A program made the translations under genes and the position numbers. Positions 1-61,929 of a stretch of DNA of 64,000 nucleotides are shown here, in pieces. Origin of the DNA: an uncultured Methanosarcinaceae archaeon (GTDB taxonomy: Archaea > Halobacteriota > Methanosarcinia > Methanosarcinales > Methanosarcinaceae); contig CAWJYV010000008.1 of assembly GCA_963847185.1 (NCBI GenBank), forward strand, positions 1,102,009-1,166,008. Direction: 5' to 3'. The notes beneath the pieces are model-generated. The model made no database searches. It worked only from the letters and a program-made list of their open reading frames with translations, and was not told the DNA's origin. Position 1 is the first letter of the stretch, and each line of letters opens with the position of its first letter.

Positions 1-1339
<1,339 letters not shown>

Positions 1340-1423
1340 AAGCACAAAACACACCAACCAGATGCCGATAAACCGAACAAAATCCTCAAACCAGAGATCC
1401 ATTGTGGATCTCTAGTCTCTCTC

Positions 1424-1496
1424 GGGCTTGTAGATCAGCTGGAAGATCGCTGCCTTTGCAAGGCAGAGGCCCTGGGTTCGAGTCCCAGCAAGTCCA
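1424..1496 (+). tRNA. tRNA-Ala(TGC) in the 16S-23S spacer
   Basis: GGGCTTG/CAAGTCC acceptor stem, anticodon arm CTGCC-TTTGCAA-GGCAG, GGTTCGAGTCC T-loop. Confidence 0.97.
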
Positions 1497-1564
1497 TTTT
1501 TGTGCACCCGGTAAGTAAATTATCGGGGAAGGACGGATCGCCTGTGCGGAACCGCAGGCTCATG

Positions 1565-1607
1565 AAGTCATGTATAGGTGCTGTATACTGGACGCTAACT
1601 GGACCTG
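1565..1607 (+). other. 5' strand of the pre-23S processing stem (bulge-helix-bulge type); pairs with 4523-4570
   Basis: AAGTCATGTATAGG..TGCTGTATACTGGA..CTGGACCTG is complementary to CAGGTCCAG..TCCAGTATGCAGCA..CCTATACATGACTT, with 3-nt bulges. Confidence 0.85.
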
Positions 1608-1626
1608 GTTAGGATATACAGGAATT

Positions 1627-4520
<2,894 letters not shown>

Positions 4521-4600
4521 ATCAGGTCCAGGCGAAATCCAGTATGCAGCACATATCCTATACATGACTTTTAGTCTTTCACAAAATCCTCTTTATATGT

Positions 4601-4729
4601 TGAGTGTGGCGGCCATAGCGTCAGGGCAACTCCTGTACCCATTCCGAACACAGCAGATAAGCCTGTCCACGTTCCTTACTGTACTGAAGTACGCGAGTCT
4701 TCGGGAACTCTGGATCGCTGCCATACTCA
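4601..4729 (+). rRNA. rrf: 5S rRNA
   Basis: TGAGTGTGGCGGCCATAGCG...CCCATTCCGAACAC...GATCGCTGCCATACTCA with paired ends. Confidence 0.96.
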
Positions 4730-38770: not shown

Positions 38771-41309
38771 TTGAGTGAGCAGCCAGCAACACATGAGAGG
38801 ACTTACAGTCAGATTTCAGATGAAAGGATAAAGGCTGCACGGCAGCTAGGGACTTATTTTGAGGTTTATCCTGACAGGAGACAGGCTTTTGAAGACCTTT
38901 TACGGCTTTGTTCTGACAGGGACAGTGTAGTAAGGGAAGAGGCTGTAAATTCCCTTGCAACAGTTTTTCCGAATGTGCCTGATAGAGAGGCGGTATGGAA
39001 GCAATTTATAAATCTTACGGCTTATCCGGAAGAAAGAGTCATAAGGGCCGCAGTAAGCTCTCTTATTAGTGTTTTTTCTCTGATGCCGGATAAGAAAAAG
39101 GCATGGGGGGATCTCGTTGAGCTGGCACATTCGAAGTCAAGCCTGGAAGATGTGAGCAGGGGAATTGTCAGTTCATTTTCGGATTTCATCAAGGAGATTC
39201 CGGATAAGCAGCATGTGTGGAAAGACCTGCTTGATATGACAGCATCAACTGACATTTATGTCAGGGAGGAAGCGGCTTCCCTCTTAAGTATTGTTTTTCC
39301 TGAGTTGTCAGATGAAAATAAAGAAGAAGCCTGGAATGAACTGCTGGAGCTAGCTGACTGAATCTACTACTGAATCTGATAATACAAAAGTAAGAGAACA
39401 GGCTGCAAGGACTCTTGGAGCAGTCTTTATGGATATGCCAGCTCAAAAGAAGGATGAGGCCCTGGATGGGCTGCTGGAACTTGCAGTTTCAGAAAGCCCT
39501 GAGGTTCAAAAAGAGATTCTTCTGGCTCTGCCCTATGTTTTTTCACATATTTCGGATAAAATAAGAGCATGGGATAATATTCTCAGGCTTACTGGAAACG
39601 AAAAAGAATCCGTACGAAAGAAAGCTGCAGATGCCCTATTCTCAATGTTTCCTGATATGCCGGATAAGAGTAAAGTCTGGACTGGTTTCTTCTACCTGAT
39701 CAGGGCAAAAGACGAGTATGTACGGGCTGTGGCAATAAATGGGCTTGTATCTCTGTTTCCTTCACTGGAAGACAAAGATTCCTTCTGGAAAGAGATTGTT
39801 GAACTTACAGATAATAACGAAGAATATGTCCAGAGAGCAGCCATTGGCACGCTGGGCAAGGTTTTTCCTTATCTTCCCAATAGAAAAGAGGCATACACAG
39901 AACTCGCGAATTTTGCTGATAAAAACGATAATAACATGCTTAAGAAGTTACTAGTGACCCTTGAATCTGATAATCCGCAGTTTTCCGATAAGTACGAAAA
40001 GAATGAAGAGGAATCGAAAGAGACGGAAAAAGAAAGAGTTGGGAATGAGCAGGCCCGGGTAAGCAGAAAGCTAATTTCTGACTCCCTCGGACCTGCAGAT
40101 GACAGCAATTCTTACATCCAAAAAGATGAGGTAAAACCCTTTGTCTGGACACACTCCTATCCGCCGGAAAAAAACGAAGTAATAAAGGAACTCATTAATC
40201 TGAGTTCAAGCCAGGATTCACAGGGATTGAGGGATATAGAGTCCTTGCTTGCTCTTTATTCAAGACACTCGGGAAAAATGCAGGACATCTGGAATGAACT
40301 ACTTAAGATAATAGAGGGTAAAGATACGGGTGCCAGAAGGAATGCCGCAGGGCTGCTCCCATATATCTTTCCAGGAGTTGAGGATAAATCCAGAGCCCTT
40401 CAAGATCTGCTCAGGCTAACTGAAAGTCAGGATTCTCAGCTCCGAAAAACTGCCGCTGAAATCTTTGCCACTGCTTTTGAATATTCTGAAAATAAACAGA
40501 GAACATGGGACGAGTTTGTCAGGCTTGCTTCTTTTGAGGACAGGGAGGTAAGAAAAAGAGCTGTCCTTGCTCTGTCATTAGGCTTTGCAGAAGTTCCTGA
40601 TAAAGAAAAAGCATGGAGGGACCTGCTCAAGCTTTCAGTTCATAGCGACAGTTTTGTACAGAGAGCTGCAACGAGGGCGCTTGGCCCTGCCTTTTATCAG
40701 GTTCCGGATAAAACTCAGGCATGGAGAGACCTTCAGGTGCTTACTGATAACCCGTACATCTATGTCCGGAGGTATGCTTTTCGCTCCCTTGCAAGAGCTT
40801 CTCTCTGGAGGGCTTTAAAGGCGGAAAACGAAGCTGCTTTTATCTTCGGGTTAAAAGAGGCTGTCAAATACTATGAAAAAGCAGCTGAAACTTTTGTTGA
40901 CGTTAATATTCCTGAATTCTATCTACCCTTTTATGAAGCTCTTTTATTCATTCTCTTTGGTGACAGGCCCGGGAGATCAAGACTTGAAAGCGGAAGATAT
41001 CTCACGAGAGTGACCGGTGGGCTCAGGGATCAAAAAGAAAACCAGTATGTTCTCGAAGCTCTCGAACAGTTTACAGACCTTTTAAGAAATGCAGAAAATT
41101 TAGCAACAAGTAGCCTGTCTGCCCGGAAAAAACTGCTTGAAACCTGCATTTTGACTTTTGATAGATATTCAAGCCTTTTTGAAAGCGTGGAAGAAAAAGA
41201 AATTCTTGCTCCTAAAACGGTGAAAAAAGAGCACCATGAACCTGGAAAAGCAATTCTGGAGAAAGTAGAGAAGAAGAAATTATTCCTGTTAAGAAACCGT
41301 AAAAAATAA
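38771..41309 (+). pseudogene. HEAT-repeat protein split by a frameshift at ~39357-39370 (ORFs 38771-39361 and 39429-41309)
   Basis: Repeats AW.DLL.L....D..VR..AA..L...F...PDK in both halves; duplicated ACTGAATCT at the junction. Confidence 0.8.
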
Positions 41310-41425: not shown

Positions 41426-41801
41426 CCTATGAAAATAAACTGTAAGTAATATGCCATGAGAAAGTTAAGCCTGGGTTTTTTGTCCTGCACTTTAATATCT
41501 TATCCTGCCAATTCCCTGTTATGTACGAGGCAGGAATCGAATTAACAGATTCGGACTTTGAGTTTGCAAAACCTCCCGTAAAGAAACAGCTCGTAAAGAA
41601 ACAGCTCGTGAAGAAACAGCTCGTGAAGAAACAGCTCGTAAAAAACAGACCCTATGAAAATAAACTGTAAGTAATATGCCATGAGAAAGTTAAGCCTGGG
41701 TTTTTTGTCCTGCACTTTAATATCTTATCCTGCCAATTCCCTGTTATGTACGAGGCAGGAATCGAATTAACAGATTCGGACTTTGAGTTTGCAAAACCTC
41801 C
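41352..41801. repeat. ~225-bp tandem duplication covering the repeat array, upstream region and first 19 codons of the 41746 gene
   Basis: 41417-41576 is repeated at 41642-41801; ATG at 41521 and 41746. Confidence 0.92.
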
Positions 41802-42060
41802 TTTTTCAAGAAAATTCATTCGCCTGGTATTCGAAAAATACCAGATTAATTTTATCGTTTACTTTGGCGAAAATATGTTCTATGTCTCAGGACAAAATTC
41901 TGAGCCTCTTGTACCCTTATATCCAAAAACAACGTACCCTGAAGATATAGAACTTGTGCTGGATTTTATGGTGCGTGAGAGAATTCGCAGAATTAAATTT
42001 GAGGACGGAAAACTTTTTCGATCCGCAGTTCCTGAACTGAACAACTCAGGTAGGGGTTAA
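41746..42060 (+). CDS. Hypothetical protein (104 aa)
   Basis: Clean ORF with protein-like composition. Confidence 0.75.
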   Translation: MYEAGIELTDSDFEFAKPPFSRKFIRLVFEKYQINFIVYFGENMFYVSGQNSEPLVPLYPKTTYPEDIELVLDFMVRERIRRIKFEDGKLFRSAVPELNNSGRG

Positions 42061-42509: not shown

Positions 42510-42567
<58 letters not shown>

Positions 42568-42694
42568 TTTATTGCCTATTTCTTTCAACTTACTAAATAT
42601 GCAGGCGGAAACCTTCATATCTAAATTTTTACCGCAGAAAGAAGGAAAGAATATTAACATTTGTTTAATATTTGTTCATTTTGAAGAAAAGATT

Positions 42695-42891
42695 GCGTTC
42701 CCATCTTGAATCTTTGGAAGTTCCGAACGGCACTTAAGAGATCTTTTATGAAGAGGTTTAGTATTGGACTCAAGGGTTGTGAGCTCTCTAATTATTTTCT
42801 CTTCACTTATAGAGTAGATTTTTCGGAGTAGGCGTTGAAGTAGTTCTTGTGGAATAGGTCTTTGCTCTGTGGTCTTGATAGATGAGAACGC
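42695..42891 (-). ncRNA. Candidate structured ncRNA, copy A (~197 nt)
   Basis: AAAAATATTATATA promoter 23 bp upstream; GCGUUCUCAUC..GAUGGGAACGC terminal stem; paralog at 43747-43934. Confidence 0.65.
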
Positions 42892-43251
42892 AATTTATAC
42901 TAGGACCTCAACCTATATAATATTTTTAATGTATAATAATATTTTATTTTTCTATTCCTGCATTATTAATCTAACTTTTTTTCATTGGTCTAACTTTACA
43001 ACACCAAACTTTGGTCATCCAATGGTGCATCCTCAAAAATTACAGCTTATCTTATTTTAGAGTAATTAAAATCGGTCAGTTGCTGTTGAAATTAGTAATC
43101 AAGAAGTTTATACTTTTAACTTTTAATACAATAAACCGCAAACAGCTATTCAAAATCAGTATAAATATATTTATTTGATTTTTTAGAAAATAATAAATAC
43201 TGTTATATCTAATTATTTTTATGGATTGATAGAACATCAGGAGGAATAGGT

Positions 43252-43611
43252 ATTAAAAAACTTAATTTTATTTTGATCTTACTTGTCTTAGCATTACTGA
43301 CAGTAAACCCCGCTGCTTCAAGACCAGAGAGAATAATAATAAGAGAAAGTACACTTATATATCCTGCTGGCTCATATTATGAAAAGAATCCCATGTTTTT
43401 GAGCATTCACACATCTGGAAATTATAGTAAGGTACAAAATCAGATGCCCACATTGAATGAAGCTCCTGGAAACTCTGAAAACAGAAAAGAAGATATATCT
43501 CCGTATAATTCCGATGATCAAACAAATCGTTACAGGAAATTTGACATCGGATATTGCTGTATGCGAATTGACAATTTTCTTTTTTCCTGGAGAATTTCTG
43601 ACGTATCCTGA
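43252..43611 (+). CDS. Small putative secreted protein; signal peptide begins at an ATT codon (TTG alternative at 43273)
   Basis: GGAGGA RBS, then in-frame ATT AAA AAA CTT.. = (I/M)KKLNFILILLVLALLTVNPAAS. Confidence 0.5.
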   Translation: MKKLNFILILLVLALLTVNPAASRPERIIIRESTLIYPAGSYYEKNPMFLSIHTSGNYSKVQNQMPTLNEAPGNSENRKEDISPYNSDDQTNRYRKFDIGYCCMRIDNFLFSWRISDVS

Positions 43612-43746
43612 TATTTTGAAATCTAAAAACGCTAATTAAGATTTTGAAATACTAAAAGATAATGGATTAATTCACTTAATATTCTTAAAGGAATCCTTAA
43701 TAAATAGAATTTATGTTTGATTCAATAATTCTTTTTAAAAGAGGAA

Positions 43747-43934
43747 GCGTTCTCATCCAAAAAATACCTGGGAGTTCCGAACGATATTCAAGAGACTCAC
43801 TTTATTTTAGTTGGGGAAGAGGTTTTGAGGTACTTTCACTTTGGTTGCGAGTTTCTTTTCTATCTCTTTATTTGTGGAGTAGTGTTCTGGAGTAGGTGTT
43901 GTCTGCTAGTGGGGTGTTAAAGAGATGAGAACGC
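43747..43934 (-). ncRNA. Candidate structured ncRNA, copy B (~188 nt)
   Basis: Same promoter and spacing; perfect GCGUUCUCAUC/GAUGAGAACGC terminal stem; internal blocks shared with copy A. Confidence 0.65.
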
Positions 43935-44129
43935 AAATTATAGTATGCAGTCATCATATATAATATTTTTAACACTTAATATTATTCGATCACTCATTGA
44001 TTAGTTCATCTCTATAATTATTTATTCATTGATTTAATGTTATACTACCTTACTTAGGATATAGATGAAAAACTGATCAAACCAAAAAGGAAAAACTAAT
44101 TTCCGGATAAAAAGAGTCACTTAACTGGC

Positions 44130-46691
44130 TCATTTCATCCGGGTATTATACGTATGATATACCGTGTATATCAAATAAAGAAGGAAAGCCAGGAAGATGA
44201 TATATTTTGTATACAAGACCTTTACCATGGCTTTCTTTTCCGTACTGGTTAAGGAGTCGCTCGTTATTCGCGAATAGATATCACCTGTGGTGTAAACCTT
44301 TCCGCCGTTTTCAAGCAGGGCTGTTCTGAAGAGGGGGTTTTCTCCAATATGAGTGTACTCGTCAGGACAGTTCGCTGATGCAGGTCTCCATGAAGAGCTA
44401 TCTACACCGAACTTTTCAGGAGTAAGTTTTTCAGTCTGGTTTATACCGGCAGGTTTTTCTGAGATCTTATGGAGTCCGAACGTATCCGGGGTAACATATG
44501 ACTCATACATACTGTCTCCGATAGGTGTTATTTCCATACGTTTCTTATCGAAATAGAGTTCTGGGGCTCCTTCTGTTTTTGTTGTGATAAGGACTCTGCC
44601 TGGCTGATCTACTTTAAGGTCAGGAACTTTTAGCTGGATATTTTCCGACATCTCGGTATCCGCAACTGCCCAGTTAAGAGTTCTTGTAACAATCAGGCTA
44701 TCGTTTCCTGAGTAGAGGCCAGAGGCCCAGGGCATGTCATGGCCGTAACCGTTATCAGTCGTAATCGCTGCAACACGACCAAGGCCAAGTCTCCAGATCG
44801 TGAGAACGGGTTTGCCCAATCTTGTTGTCACGAGTCGGTTTGCTTCGGGTTTTGGAGTTACTTCATTATAACCTAAAACATCACTTTCAGTTTCAGGCAA
44901 ATCCTTTGTAATGAAGTGTCTGGGGTCGCAAACTATCAATGAACCGCTGGAATAATTCTCCTCTTTTTCTTCGGACTCTTCCGAATTCTCGTTAGAGAAA
45001 CTGACGTTAATTCTCTGTCCTGGTTCTAGCTTTTTGTAGTTTTCAGATAGACCTAGTCTGTTCATGAAGAGATCTGGATAATATTTGCCTTTGGGAGTAA
45101 CCTGATATTGCGTTCTTGGAGCGTGAATATGAACAAAGTGAATACCTATCCCTTTTTCACGAAGCATTTTAGCACAATTAACTGCCTTCTCAAATCTATT
45201 ATCCCCTTCAGCCGTATTGCCGATTCCTCCATCCGAAACTATTACAATTTCAGCATCTGCACTTTCGTTCTGTGCTTTAAGCAGATTGCGTGCAGTAATT
45301 AATCCTTTTTCGAGAGATGTCGAATCTCCGGATGGCTTTATTTTGCGAATCTCAGTGTCAAGCCACAATCTATTCGACTCTTTTGACATATCCAGGAATC
45401 CGTTAGTTATATCCTGTCCCTTGCTTCCGAAAGTAATTACATTTACTCTTGCATCTTTTAAAAGATCGCTTTCAAGAAGAAGTACTGCATTTGACAGGAT
45501 ATCGTCCAGGACCCGTCCTCCAACATTATTGCTTTGAAGGGTGCTGGGCGAAACATCAAGTATCAAAACGACATTCCTGCCTCCTCTCCAGCTTGAAGGC
45601 TTTGAGATCACCGGAAGGAGTTCTTCAAATTGTGTATTTTGATACGTGCTATCTGCAGGATAATCGAAAGAGTCATCTCCCCCAACTACCACCATACCGC
45701 CTCCTCCGATGATGTATTTCCTCAAGGCATCGACTTCAGAATCTGAGATTGTCGACGCAGCCTGATTGTCGAGAATGACTGCATCGAACCCTTCAAGGGA
45801 ACCGATTGATCTGGAAGAGGATACATCATAAACTTCATTCAACATGTTTGCCAGGGAAGAATCAGGTTCTTTCGTTACAAAAAATACCCTGGGCTTTGGG
45901 GTTACGTATACGCATTTCATGTACTGGTTATTGTTCTCAAAATAATCCAGGCTCTTTACATTTATGGCTGCAGGATGAAGAGTTGCTTTTATTGTGTGCG
46001 GGCCCAGTGTATCGAAAGTATGATTGAGTTCAATGCTTTCTATTCTTCCGGTCTGAGTAATTTCCTTTTCCATTACCTGTTTGCGGTCAACTGTAACTCT
46101 AACCTGATACTTCATTTCGTTTTCAGTAGATTTTCTAATATTTAGCTTGAAAAAAGCCTCATTATCTATTACAAGCTCATTTTCTCCTTCGATTTCTATA
46201 CTGAGGTCCTCTTTGAGAGTATGCGGGATAAGTGCGGATACAGGGAAATTGTTTTTTTGGCAATAGGAGAGAGCCTCTTCAATTGAAGTTCCTGAATTGC
46301 TCTGTCCGTCAGAAACTACGAGTACATAGTTTTCAGGAGAAGCCTGCTGGATAATAGCATCCCCAAGAGAAGTATGCTGCCCCGAAAGCGTTGTAATGGT
46401 GACCGGGATCTTACTGTTAAGTTTTTCAGAAATGTTTTCCGGAACTCCCTTTTGGAAAAGCTCCATACTGGTACTCTCGTCAGATATTATGGTTATTTTG
46501 GATTGGCTGGTTTTCGGGAAACTCATCTCTGTAGAAAAAGGAGCTGCAAGCGCTATAATCAGGAGGGACGCAACAAGCGCATGGAAAAACAAATGTTTTC
46601 TACTGATTTTTGTTTTTAGCCCCAGAAGTACGAGAATTGCCAGAGGAAGCAGGAGGATTAATTCCGTTTTGTATAGAAAATCAAAGCTCAT
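44130..46691 (-). CDS. Membrane-anchored vWA-domain protein with glutamine-amidotransferase-like domain
   Basis: MIDAS-like DESTS..SDG and DVSPS..VSDG; GGGMVVVGG..LLPV; GLGRV; N- and C-terminal TM. Confidence 0.85.
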   Translation of the reverse strand: MSFDFLYKTELILLLPLAILVLLGLKTKISRKHLFFHALVASLLIIALAAPFSTEMSFPKTSQSKITIISDESTSMELFQKGVPENISEKLNSKIPVTITTLSGQHTSLGDAIIQQASPENYVLVVSDGQSNSGTSIEEALSYCQKNNFPVSALIPHTLKEDLSIEIEGENELVIDNEAFFKLNIRKSTENEMKYQVRVTVDRKQVMEKEITQTGRIESIELNHTFDTLGPHTIKATLHPAAINVKSLDYFENNNQYMKCVYVTPKPRVFFVTKEPDSSLANMLNEVYDVSSSRSIGSLEGFDAVILDNQAASTISDSEVDALRKYIIGGGGMVVVGGDDSFDYPADSTYQNTQFEELLPVISKPSSWRGGRNVVLILDVSPSTLQSNNVGGRVLDDILSNAVLLLESDLLKDARVNVITFGSKGQDITNGFLDMSKESNRLWLDTEIRKIKPSGDSTSLEKGLITARNLLKAQNESADAEIVIVSDGGIGNTAEGDNRFEKAVNCAKMLREKGIGIHFVHIHAPRTQYQVTPKGKYYPDLFMNRLGLSENYKKLEPGQRINVSFSNENSEESEEKEENYSSGSLIVCDPRHFITKDLPETESDVLGYNEVTPKPEANRLVTTRLGKPVLTIWRLGLGRVAAITTDNGYGHDMPWASGLYSGNDSLIVTRTLNWAVADTEMSENIQLKVPDLKVDQPGRVLITTKTEGAPELYFDKKRMEITPIGDSMYESYVTPDTFGLHKISEKPAGINQTEKLTPEKFGVDSSSWRPASANCPDEYTHIGENPLFRTALLENGGKVYTTGDIYSRITSDSLTSTEKKAMVKVLYTKYIIFLAFLLYLIYTVYHTYNTRMK

Positions 46692-48586
46692 ATGATTTTC
46701 CTCCTGAGCATGATAAAGTTTTCAATAATAAGCAGTAGCAACAGGATGTAAATTATGTATTTTCGGATTTTGTCCGGGGACCTGGTCTGCAGATCTTCTT
46801 TTTTAATCTCTGCGTTCTCACCTTCCAGATCCAATCTTTTTTCCGTGAAGGTATTTGATTCTGCGGAATCGTAAAGGTTGGCAGCAACAGTTTTCTGGTT
46901 AAGGTGGTAGAGCCCGCATTCATCATAGTAAATGAACTTGCTGCTTATAGTTTCCGTAGGGGTTTTGATTATGGTATTCTGGTCGAATGCCTGGTACCTG
47001 CCTGTGTTTACATTGGTTTCGCTGATATCATCGATTCCCCATATATACTTGAGAAGTTTTGCCCAGAAAACAGGATATGTAGGGATAGTAGGGAAATTTG
47101 TCCAGGCTTCGTTTTCAATAGTGTCACTCAGCCCAACATAGGTCGTTGTCCCATCTTTTATATTCCACGCACAAACAACAGGTCCGACCCCTTCAAGTTC
47201 GGCAAGCACCGAAATATTATCCTTCGGAACAGCAACAAGATATTTGCGCAGGTACACCTCGTCAAATGCCACTTCCTCAAAAATATTGTTTCCACTTCCT
47301 GCAGTTTCAATCGTGTGGCTGTCTTCTTCTTTAATTGAAACTATATCTACGGGAAGGATCGGATAAAGCCCATGCATTTCTGAAGAATTATACAGGCAGC
47401 CGTTTCCTATAACAATCAGATTTTTTCCGTTTTTCGCATATGTTACTACTTTCCTGATATCGGAGCTTGAAAGAGGTTCATACTCGCAACTTATCACAAT
47501 AGTATCATACTTTTCAAAGTCTTCCGGCAGCTTATTCTGCACATCGACATTATTATCAGGCATCAAGGATAGTGCTGTTATTACAGGAGACTTGCTGGAA
47601 GCAGGATCAATGTCTGTTAATATAAGCATTTTTTTCGGAGTGATTTCAGGAATGGAGATATGGGCAATGTTATCACAGGAGACTGCATCCTTATTTTGAA
47701 TTTTCACAGCTGAAGCACCCTCTGGAATACTGGAAAATGTTATTTGCTGAGCTCCGAACCCATCCAGGGAAAGTGAATTGTTTATTTTTTGAGGGGAAAA
47801 GAGCCCGGATTTACTTTCCAGTTGAACATCGAGCCTTGCACTCTCATTGCCGAAATTTTTGACAGTACACATATAATCATATGTGCCATCATTACGGTCT
47901 TTCAAATAACCGTTTACGATTGCGTAGTTAATAGCGGGTTTACCTACCTGCCTGAACTCAAGTTGCATGTTTTTTGCGTTAGCAATTTTGACGTATGTTT
48001 CAGGAGCCCTTCCTGCCCAGTTTTCAAAATCCGAGATCACGACGATTTTTGCATTTTCATTTTCCTCATCATTCACAACAGTAAGAATCGATTCAGGCAC
48101 ATCTGCAGGTGTATCTCGAGCTTCCATGCTGCTGACAAGTTCTTTTGCGTTTTTCGAATCAATGGCCTTCGCAAGCACTACAGGAATGCTTTCCGCAGCA
48201 ATAATTGTATTTTCTTTTCCCAGGCTCTCTATTGCGATGGACCTGGCGGCATCAATACGGTCAGGTACGCTCATGCTGGCTGAAGAGTCTATTATGACTA
48301 CAACTTTTTCCGAGTTTTCTGAAATGCTATCCAGTAAAGGACCTGCAATGGCAATTGATAAAAGGACCAGCGTAAGTAATTGTAAGAAAAAAAGAGGATC
48401 TGTGATTTTCTTAGTAATTTTGCGCCTGGAAGCGCTTACATTCTGGCTTATTCTTTGAACAAACATTAAAGAAGGGAGGATTATCTGTTTTGGCCTGGGT
48501 TTAAGTAAATATACTATTATCAGGGGAATTATACCTGCAAGTGCAACCAGGCCCGGGGGAAATTCATAGTCCATAGGCAGGATCAC
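46688..48586 (-). CDS. BatA-type N-terminal/vWA domain protein
   Basis: IPLII.YLLKP.P....PSLMF..LQLL..A.A.P; DSSAS MIDAS; VISD; C-terminal TM. Confidence 0.85.
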   Translation of the reverse strand: MILPMDYEFPPGLVALAGIIPLIIVYLLKPRPKQIILPSLMFVQRISQNVSASRRKITKKITDPLFFLQLLTLVLLSIAIAGPLLDSISENSEKVVVIIDSSASMSVPDRIDAARSIAIESLGKENTIIAAESIPVVLAKAIDSKNAKELVSSMEARDTPADVPESILTVVNDEENENAKIVVISDFENWAGRAPETYVKIANAKNMQLEFRQVGKPAINYAIVNGYLKDRNDGTYDYMCTVKNFGNESARLDVQLESKSGLFSPQKINNSLSLDGFGAQQITFSSIPEGASAVKIQNKDAVSCDNIAHISIPEITPKKMLILTDIDPASSKSPVITALSLMPDNNVDVQNKLPEDFEKYDTIVISCEYEPLSSSDIRKVVTYAKNGKNLIVIGNGCLYNSSEMHGLYPILPVDIVSIKEEDSHTIETAGSGNNIFEEVAFDEVYLRKYLVAVPKDNISVLAELEGVGPVVCAWNIKDGTTTYVGLSDTIENEAWTNFPTIPTYPVFWAKLLKYIWGIDDISETNVNTGRYQAFDQNTIIKTPTETISSKFIYYDECGLYHLNQKTVAANLYDSAESNTFTEKRLDLEGENAEIKKEDLQTRSPDKIRKYIIYILLLLLIIENFIMLRRKII

Positions 48587-61843: not shown

Positions 61844-61929
61844 GCTGAGGTAGCCCAGCGGACTACGGCGCCGGTCTTGAAAACCGGTAGTGCTCACGCG
61901 CTACGGGAGTTCGAATCTCCCCCTCAGCG
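61844..61929 (+). tRNA. tRNA-Ser(TGA)
   Basis: GCTGAGG/CCTCAGC acceptor, CCGGT-CTTGAAA-ACCGG anticodon arm, long variable arm, GTTCGAATC. Confidence 0.96.

Follow-up and report, generated by a model that had tools for sequence, protein, structure and literature searches.

Within a 64,000-nt stretch of genome from an uncultured Methanosarcinaceae archaeon (assembly GCA_963847185.1, contig CAWJYV010000008.1, positions 1,102,009 to 1,166,008; below, the window), two look-alike segments are confirmed here as genes for a multi-copy non-coding RNA of ~190 nt, and the family to which they belong is shown to occur, within the genomes searched, only in Methanosarcina and a single sister genus. Each gene has a strong archaeal promoter of its own and each transcript is closed by a stem that joins its two ends, and we tentatively regard this RNA as a regulator that acts in trans by base pairing with messenger RNAs.

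Both genes are read from the minus strand. Copy B gives an RNA of 188 nt that runs from a 5′ G at 43934 to a 3′ C at 43747, and copy A an RNA of 197 nt from a 5′ G at 42891 to a 3′ C at 42695, with 1043 bp between the two 5′ ends; the coordinates and strand that an earlier note, written from the letters of this DNA alone, had given for two diverged minus-strand copies are correct. Both RNAs start with GCGUUCUCAUC and finish with GAUG(A/G)GAACGC, and the string AAAAATATTATATA (43970-43957 for B and 42927-42914 for A), in which the note had recognised one and the same B recognition element (BRE) and TATA box, ends 23 bp ahead of the first G in each; it belongs to the 16-mer TTAAAAATATTATATA, located on the minus strand at 43957..43972 and 42914..42929, respectively. 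Complementary ends followed by a pyrimidine tract had also been pointed out, and they were recovered by counting. Indeed, the 11-mer GCGTTCTCATC, searched on both strands with at most one mismatch, occurs five times in the window as compared to 0.80 expected, a count that 0 of 100 shuffles reached, and four of these five matches are the termini of copies A and B; the 15-mer CGTTCGGAACTYCCA occurs twice (0.12 expected; 1 of 100 shuffles reached two). When read and folded, the mismatch between the ends of copy A is a U-G pair on the minus strand only, as the note had seen, and a pyrimidine/T-run follows the stem in both genes (minus strand, 43737..43746 in B, where it is the likely termination site, and 42683..42694 in A). 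Because the two RNA bodies are only 50% identical, the shared promoter, the ends and the internal blocks (those listed in the note are present in both copies) represent conserved islands and not the trace of a recent duplication.

Among the 46 family copies listed, TTAAAAAT(A/T)(T/A)TATATA or a close variant stands ahead of the RNA in 46/46, about 9 variable bases separate this promoter from a second conserved element, ATAGTATAANTT, which abuts the first G (ATACTATAATTT at 43935..43946, minus strand, in copy B; the element is kept across copies), and a T-run lies 3-10 nt past the last C, again in 46/46. In the whole 4.04-Mb genome, the 16-mer TTAAAAATATTATATA has only four occurrences, one ahead of each family member. 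Four independent lines assign the RNAs to the minus strand, namely the side on which the promoter lies, the side on which the T-run lies, the G-U pairs (which would be C-A mismatches on the other strand) and the uniform orientation of adapter-like junctions in the RNA contigs described below, the last of which assumes the usual convention for stranded libraries. Note that different species also keep the sequence that precedes the A-type promoter, GCTATAAGGTTAAACCA ... AACAAAATAGAGTTAAAATAATATTA, as far as about −110, and that a conserved upstream stretch, ~30-110 nt before the TATA box, was seen at copies A and B and at loci L039, L051, L056, L069, L072, L075 and L076; the sequence conserved upstream of the A-type promoter may be the site of a regulator.

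The earlier note spoke of a pair of paralogues, which holds within the window, but the genome has four genes in total, two further copies having been found by similarity search on contigs C7 and C10. A covariance model (R1), which describes the terminal stem and two hairpins and was trained on 33 copies, gave exactly four matches at E ≤ 1 in this genome, including copy B with 161.5 bits and copy A with 129.2 bits. The note had proposed such a covariance-model search, and R1 found the family in Methanosarcina (34/34 sampled genomes, 2-6 copies each, often in tandem) and in the sister genus (6/6 genomes, also 2-6 copies each), and in 0 of 110 genomes across 14 other genera of the same taxonomic family. 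In a class-wide sample, the matches within this taxonomic family (24/67 genomes) were confined to two genera (18/18 and 6/6), and 0 of 83 genomes of four other families matched. A pattern made of the exact ends was found in 52/58 genomes of the same genus, in 5/6 of the second genus and in none of 14 other genera of the family, with a reversed-pattern control of 0. Scanned over one genome per species (185,579 species), this pattern returned 67 stretches, 9 of them with bacterial titles. These nine and four other stretches were re-checked with R1: the four others all matched (4/4), and eight of the bacterial-titled ones gave no match at E ≤ 1, and were therefore taken as chance pattern matches. 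The ninth, a 2,672-bp contig (L125) from a metagenome-assembled genome (MAG) labelled Eubacteriales, holds a tandem pair with 152.9 and 142.1 bits and is probably a Methanosarcina contig mis-binned into a bacterial MAG. The other 54 stretches, counted without R1 re-check, bear Methanosarcina, Methanosarcinaceae or Methanosarcinales titles. The length of the family RNAs ranges from 148 to 227 nt, with a median of 189. Tandem repeats of ~17 nt (TCATTCCTTTGTTTTTG-like) lie directly past the fourth copy of the genome (contig C10, L003 ~1770-1870).

The genes are also expressed. Twenty-two sequencing runs matched a 1451-nt stretch, and 20 of these hold 5-14% of its sampled words, which corresponds to about the length of one RNA gene. 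Contigs were examined in four runs, namely X1, X2 and X4, which are metatranscriptomes from three studies, and X3, which is RNA by guess only. All contig pieces of these runs fall within 42702-42883 or 43732-43926, covering 42702-42883 of copy A and 43748-43926 of copy B, and k-mer depth ranged between hundreds and tens of thousands in X1 and X2, as opposed to 3.7-5.5 in X3 and X4; the spacer and the flanks are without contig cover, which is no evidence of silence there. One 185-nt contig with 100% identity spans 43732-43916 and thus continues 15 nt beyond the stem into the T-run. Adapter-like letters, which we take to be the library adapter, abut genome sequence at 42716, 42843, 42883, 43752 and 43796, always in the same orientation, and since they do so inside the RNA genes, the reads extended beyond the inserts. 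The contigs of the four runs showed neither back-joined ends, as expected of a circular RNA, nor any other joint, contigs being poor evidence in this matter. Discrete expression from the genes' own promoter and terminator was found, with ends and strand that we infer from the contigs and the adapter-like junctions, and the suggestion that these are independently transcribed non-coding genes with paired ends agrees with the promoter and T-run of all 46 listed copies and with contigs that cover only the two genes. The RNA is likely one of the major small RNAs of Methanosarcina cells.

Short multi-copy elements with inverted ends of 11-12 nt and several copies per genome could also be miniature inverted-repeat transposable elements (MITEs) or other mobile repeats whose ends look like a stem, but such an origin is very improbable for this family. 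The promoter is conserved outside the repeat, the flanks (ATAGTATAANTT upstream, A/T-rich sequence and then the T-run downstream) are not direct repeats, the copy number is stable at 2-6, the G-U pairs are strand-specific and accompanied by compensatory changes as in RNA, and the genes are expressed as discrete units. In addition, the A/B locus keeps its neighbours, whose proteins are 41.5-80% identical: the VWA gene upstream of copy B has orthologues directly upstream of a family copy at five other loci (68-80% identity), and downstream, in the loci that were fetched, orf104 recurs in three (41.5-71%) and a HEAT-repeat gene in two (~49%). The order VWA gene, B-type RNA, A-type RNA, orf104 and HEAT gene makes the A/B locus syntenic with six other loci, and because these neighbours are syntenic across species, the locus must have been vertically inherited. 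The earlier note had named target-site duplications and loss of the upstream TATA box in homologues as the marks of a MITE; the homologues keep the TATA box, lack target-site duplications and stand in syntenic loci. Across 11 related tandem loci, conservation does not extend to the spacer that separates the copies.

It is scarcely credible, too, that the transcripts are messengers of a small protein or cis-acting leaders of a neighbouring gene. Chance ORFs of 41 and 60 aa do overlap the copies on the plus strand, but no open reading frame (ORF) is conserved among the family RNAs, and the note had likewise seen no credible one; the median longest ORF reaches 18.5 aa in sense and 25.5 aa in antisense, the lengths of the RNAs vary with no three-base period, and an ATG is missing altogether from the sense strand in 7 of the 92 RNAs. 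In addition, no gene follows downstream in the same direction or the one that follows is convergent, and the RNA contigs stop at the gene borders.

That no named family had been recognised from the letters is in line with the covariance search of Rfam 15, which at gathering thresholds found only rRNAs and tRNAs in the whole window, and at E ≤ 10 gave six weak matches in 42600-44050, none of them on either RNA. In the searchable literature, to which supplementary lists of small RNAs (sRNAs) do not belong, no description of such a family was found, and the sequence strings matched no archaeal paper. A 2009 study of M. mazei (Jager et al.) reportedly listed 248 sRNA candidates, and individual copies may well already stand under sRNA numbers in the M. 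mazei candidate lists or Ribo-seq tables. The family is new to Rfam, and its transcripts are of the archaeal intergenic sRNA kind, with an unusual conservation of promoter and end stem.

The stem that joins the 5′ and 3′ ends (P1, 11-12 bp) is the sole universal helix. On the minus strand, it pairs nt 1-12 of copy B (43923..43934) with nt 177-188 (GGAUGAGAACGC, 43747..43758) and nt 1-12 of copy A (42880..42891) with nt 186-197 (AGAUGGGAACGC, 42695..42706, which includes the U7-G wobble). In the set of copies found by their exact ends, where the P1 sequence is fixed by ascertainment, pairs 4, 5 and 7 alternate between U-A and U-G, and pair 12, which the pattern does not fix, is C-G in 13, U-A in 8, U-G in 4 and unpaired in 8 of 33 sequences. 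A divergent set, independent of the pattern, comprises 20 lower-scoring copies found by the model (21 R1 matches, one of which is the opposite-strand match of L095). There, P1 is 99.2% paired and three pairs change on both sides; pair 3 is G-C in 17, G-U in 2 and A-U in 2 matches, pair 5 shows one C-G among 20 U-A, pair 7 is U-G, U-A or C-G, and pair 12 is U-A in 10 and C-G in 7. Scored jointly, P1, P4 and P5 (the two latter described below) reach a covariation of 0.205 as compared to 0.154 ± 0.011, with 0 of 500 shuffles as high and slid controls at 0.034-0.094, in an alignment that was fitted to the R1 model and thereby favours structure.

The other helices are less general. The P4 hairpin (consensus ACUCGC/GUGAGU) occurs in most members, with 70.8-78.7% of cells paired and four of its six pairs changing on both sides (alignment A4); copy B has a weaker form, UCGC/GUGA, at nt 85-99 (43836..43850, minus strand), and copy A folds GCUCAC/UUGAGU at nt 108-124 (42768..42784, minus strand). 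P5, a 3′ hairpin around the conserved block CCGUUCGGAAC, is not universal (54.5-70.7% of cells paired); the block reads UCGUUCGGAACUCCCAGGU in copy B (nt 151-169; 43766..43784, minus strand) and CCGUUCGGAACUUCCA in copy A (nt 162-177; 42715..42730, minus strand). This block repeats a piece of each strand of P1, CGUUC from the 5′ strand and GGAAC from the 3′ strand, so that each end of the RNA could alternatively pair with it, and in a column scan GUUCU (nt 3-7) was 95-100% complementary to the GGAAC of the block. As to the AAGAGA/UCUCUU helix that the note had considered, pairing of these letters occurs in both copies but differs between them. In copy B, AAAGAGAU (nt 65-73; UAAAGAGAU, 43862..43870, minus strand, from a duplex search) pairs best with AUCUCUUUA at nt 9-17 (43918..43926, minus strand), giving a helix P2 of 9 bp and −9.6 kcal/mol that shares the three bases AUC with P1. 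In copy A, the fold predicts a helix P3 of GUGAAGAG (nt 86-93) with CUCUUCAU (nt 137-144), which encloses P4 (42748..42806, minus strand). In its general form, P2 pairs AUCYCUUUA (nt 9-17) with UAAAGRGAU, which lies ~50 nt farther downstream, and encloses a G-poor loop. Of 92 distinct RNAs, 57 have a recognisable P2, copy B among them but not the A type, and position 12 of the helix is C-G in 39, U-G in 4 and U-A in 14, counts that are descriptive, since an energy search picked the pairs.

Folded singly, the two RNAs do only mildly better than their shuffled versions (z = −2.0 for one and −2.2 for the other, each matched by 4 of 200 shuffles), RNAalifold returned P1 alone for 33 sequences, the consensus folds of the subfamilies disagree with one another, and a scan of column pairs gave no further robust helix. 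Pairing is predicted for ~0.47 overall; the probability falls to 0.07-0.27 in the middle pyrimidine block of copy B, and it is 0.99 for the CUCUUC of copy A. The composition of the family RNAs is 35% A, 27% C, 23% U and 15% G. The term 'structured RNA' used in the earlier note stood as far as P1 covaries, but was overstated beyond it, because only P1 is universal and pairing is low; an end-clamped and mostly open RNA would be the better description. A U-rich tract before the 3′ strand was considered as a fixed protein site and rejected, as it differs between subfamilies.

In the open part of the RNA, conservation concentrates in pyrimidine motifs. Internally, the highest conservation across 72 distinct RNAs, at ≥ 97%, falls on CUACU in CCUACUCC (~nt 38-46) and on CUCUUC in CCUCUUCC (~nt 113-121). 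In copy B, the G-poor loop at nt 18-64 (43871..43917, minus strand; G-free runs) contains ACACCCCAC and two CUACUCC (nt 40 and 53), and a conserved pyrimidine block at nt 101-122 (43813..43834, minus strand), predicted to be unpaired, contains two ACCUC and CUCUUCC. Copy B has the wider motif CUAYYYY twice (nt 40 and 53) and copy A four times (nt 35, 49, 61 and 75), the four forming an array with 12-14 nt spacing (42811..42857, minus strand). CUA[CU]3 is present 1.33 times per RNA on average as compared to 0.47 in shuffles, but the series of two to four spaced motifs that the note had seen in A and B is not general: 11 of the 72 RNAs have none, 39 one, 10 two, 11 three and 1 four, hence 22/72 with at least two. 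Since most RNAs carry none or one, the multi-motif array (spacings of 12-14 or 25-26 nt) is a trait of the A and B subfamilies.

ACCUC, which equals five letters of the 16S rRNA 3′ tail, is found in 76 of 92 RNAs (shuffles, 0.28 per RNA), and a tandem ACCUC block could make the RNA ribosome-directed, either by pairing with an internal 16S segment or by mimicking the 16S 3′ tail, in small-subunit assembly or in translation control. Nt 101-124 of copy B (43811-43834), which belong to the most conserved block of the RNA, could form 21 bp with the 16S rRNA segment that spans 454-480 of the window and holds two GAGGU (−29.8 kcal/mol, a value matched by 4 of 200 shuffles), and the C7 and C10 copies choose overlapping 16S sites. 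However, the statistics are weak and the tests not independent (14/200 shuffles as good for C7 and 30/200 for C10), the best 16S site of copy A lies elsewhere, the 16S segment is identical in the four other genomes checked and so offers no changes in which covariation could show, and the changes in sister-genus RNAs weaken the pairing. The segment is moreover presumably base-paired in mature rRNA. Altogether, this ribosomal role appears improbable. Complementarity of the RNAs to 23S and 5S rRNA was unremarkable.

The account that we rank first, at a probability of roughly 45%, is that of a trans-acting base-pairing regulator that works through its conserved, G-poor single-stranded segments; it comes first because the characterised Methanosarcina sRNAs are reported to work in this way and because an open state is predicted for the conserved motifs, and its mechanism is one that we infer. 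The RNA would act in trans, the end-clamping stem and the U-tail would protect it from exonucleases, which would fit its abundance, and the invariant pyrimidine segments would be displayed as open seeds, one in the 5′ loop (CCUACUCC) and one midway along the RNA (ACCUC..CCUCUUCC). These seeds may pair with purine-rich stretches of mRNAs (GGAG/GAGGU) at or near ribosome-binding sites (RBSs) and thereby change translation or stability of the mRNA, and paralogue-specific additions, such as the four-motif array of copy A, would widen or shift the set of targets.

Several observations weigh against this base-pairing regulator. Complementarity within the own genome stays within chance (longest perfect match, 16 nt; best, 21 nt with one mismatch, E 0.03), and the regions ahead of crudely called ORF starts show no enrichment of motif complements (for GGAGTAG, as an example, 19 start regions vs 14 interior windows, of 4853), the start calls being poor in that only 281/4853 have GGAGG. 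The 'anti-SD-like' character (SD, Shine-Dalgarno) that the note had given to the motifs stands for ACCUC but not for the exact anti-SD core CCUCC, which is found in 4/92 RNAs, below the shuffle expectation. Structural support apart from P1 is weak (P4, 71-79%; P5, 55-71%; P2, 57/92), and contigs give transcript ends, strand and level without certainty. Finally, motifs, stem sequence and promoter are kept in paralogues with otherwise only 38-67% identity, and such invariance across diverged paralogues fits one common partner, for example a protein, at least as well as many mRNAs.

This last point leads to the strong rival, an RNA whose stem and pyrimidine motifs bind one conserved protein, as a sponge, decoy or ribonucleoprotein (RNP) scaffold in the manner of CsrB/RsmZ, CrcZ, 6S or Y RNA. 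It draws its strength from the absence of targets above chance in the own-genome searches, the avoidance of CCUCC and the invariance of stem, promoter and motifs: the stem hardly varies even in its sequence (8 of 12 pairs stay the same throughout 33 sequences, and 5 of 12 throughout the divergent set), and the same motifs recur in all paralogues despite their divergence. The very high k-mer depth in two metatranscriptomes and the regularly spaced motifs of copy A, together with the 22/72 RNAs that have two or more, speak for it as well. On the other hand, the gene neighbourhoods, which differ between the three loci, yielded no candidate protein, most RNAs carry a single CUAYYY motif (39/72) or none (11/72), and we know of no protein-sequestering RNA of this kind described in archaea, so that we hold protein binding to be somewhat unlikely. 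A particular form of it, in which the RNA titrates a protein or serves as a scaffold within an abundant Methanosarcina-specific RNP, and in which the protein is possibly one that normally recognises the pyrimidine-rich 16S 3′ tail, the ACCUC letters of which the RNA repeats, is more doubtful still.

As for single targets of a base-pairing regulator, RBS-like sites with GGGAAGAGG or GGAGTAGG exist in the genome and are unremarkable, and a search for clusters of complementary RRRRTAG sites turned up only tandem repeats. The operon of acetyl-CoA decarbonylase/synthase (ACDS, cdh), considered as a target to see whether the family could be sRNA41 of M. mazei, was located in the own genome, and by eye only matches of 6-7 nt to the RNA were seen. 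In this 10-contig assembly, only one CdhC (ACDS) locus was found (C8:777067-777528); M. mazei is reported to have two ACDS operons (PMC5867862). An ORF lies on the plus strand between the copies (43239-43611, ~110 aa, with a GGAGG box, a hydrophobic, signal-peptide-like start and no Pfam match), and ACCUAUUCC of copy A is complementary to GGAAUAGGU at its RBS (43243-43251). It was rejected as a target of copy A, as the spacer is not conserved, the ORF and its RBS site are absent from the spacers of the 11 related loci, and by our own estimate ~0.2 such matches are expected by chance.

Around the two genes, ORFs lie at 39429-41309 (+), 41746-42060 (+), 44130-46691 (−) and 46688-48586 (−), and the neighbour products are a BatA/DUF7408 protein, a VWA/DUF7408 protein, a 104-aa ORF without family and a HEAT-repeat protein. 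They show no evident link to the RNAs, and the other two loci have unrelated neighbours (a CobW GTPase at one; ParE and an FAD protein at the other). About 15 AAAT units, in minus-strand reading, occupy window ~42512-42575, ~120 nt downstream of copy A. Farther away, window 1-4726 is an rRNA operon with a 16S gene cut at its start, a spacer tRNA at 1424-1496, 23S at 1613-4521 and 5S at 4605-4726, and another tRNA is present at 61844-61929.

No other methanogens are as versatile as Methanosarcina, which also serve as the main genetic models in work on methane biology, and to our knowledge only three of their sRNAs have a known function. Against this background, a family that is present in every Methanosarcina genome searched and that assembles on its own from sludge and sediment metatranscriptomes deserves attention. 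A covariance model is now available for annotating it, and the invariant stem and motifs offer handles for knock-outs, pull-downs and target searches.

Among known systems, sRNA162 of M. mazei comes closest. Its primary transcript has 191 nt and comes from a promoter of its own; it has a paralogue, sRNA171, and folds three stem-loops and a linker of 39 nt, which is single-stranded and masks an RBS (PMC3510493). It adjoins a regulator of the ArsR family (MM2441/MA1531) and overlaps, in antisense, the leader of MM2442; reports of homologues are limited to Methanosarcina, M. acetivorans and M. barkeri having one copy each (PMC3510493). Our family resembles it in genus, in length (188/197 vs ~191 nt), in having its own promoter and in having paralogues, and the active segment of sRNA162 is likewise unstructured. 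In contrast, the family has 2-6 copies in every Methanosarcina genome searched, and its neighbours in the window are VWA and HEAT proteins. In five genomes, none of the family copies stands beside an HTH_5 (ArsR-type) gene among the matches listed, beyond which there are 56 weaker ones, the nearest being ~7 kb away and the others at least 13 kb, and six short pieces of the ends and of the CUACUCC region (as DNA, RNA and reverse complement) are absent from the text of PMC3510493 that was available. Given the ArsR neighbour and single copy of sRNA162, the lack of an adjoining HTH_5 gene among the listed matches and the fact that R1 finds the four copies only, the family is not sRNA162/171, from which it is set apart by gene context and copy number and not by alignment.

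Two further M. mazei sRNAs, sRNA154 and sRNA41, are reported to occlude RBSs (PMC5867862, PMC6560208). The first is described as conserved within Methanosarcina, is expressed only under nitrogen limitation, and is driven by a promoter that carries an NrpR operator, located between MM3337 and MM3338 (PMC5867862, PMC6560208, PMC3177094). Like the family, both are Methanosarcina intergenic sRNAs, and they use loops on RBSs; unlike it, neither is reported, in the parts of the sources seen, as multi-copy with closed ends, the comparison being one of descriptions and not of sequences.

With the bacterial RNAs and Y RNA, the likeness is one of design. The family is abundant and paralogous, and some of its members repeat a short motif in regions predicted to be unpaired, much like CsrB/RsmZ and CrcZ, which are abundant and paralogous, present many motif copies in hairpin loops or A-rich tracts and have a known protein partner; it differs from them in that most members have one CUAYYY, and it has no sequence or Rfam similarity to them. 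6S and Y RNA are abundant RNAs of ~100-190 nt whose ends are joined by a terminal stem, both in Rfam, and the family shares with them a length of ~190 nt, abundance and paired ends. Unlike in 6S RNA, its folds have in common only P1 and local hairpins, with no rod-like pairing of the two halves, and no Rfam match at E ≤ 10; unlike for Y RNA, no TROVE/Ro match was found among six ORFs of the window and six at the other two loci. If the partner is a protein, the family would open a class of regulation so far undescribed in archaea, and, should the RNP proposal hold, it would be the first case in archaea of a regulatory RNA comparable to those of the CsrB, 6S or Y type.

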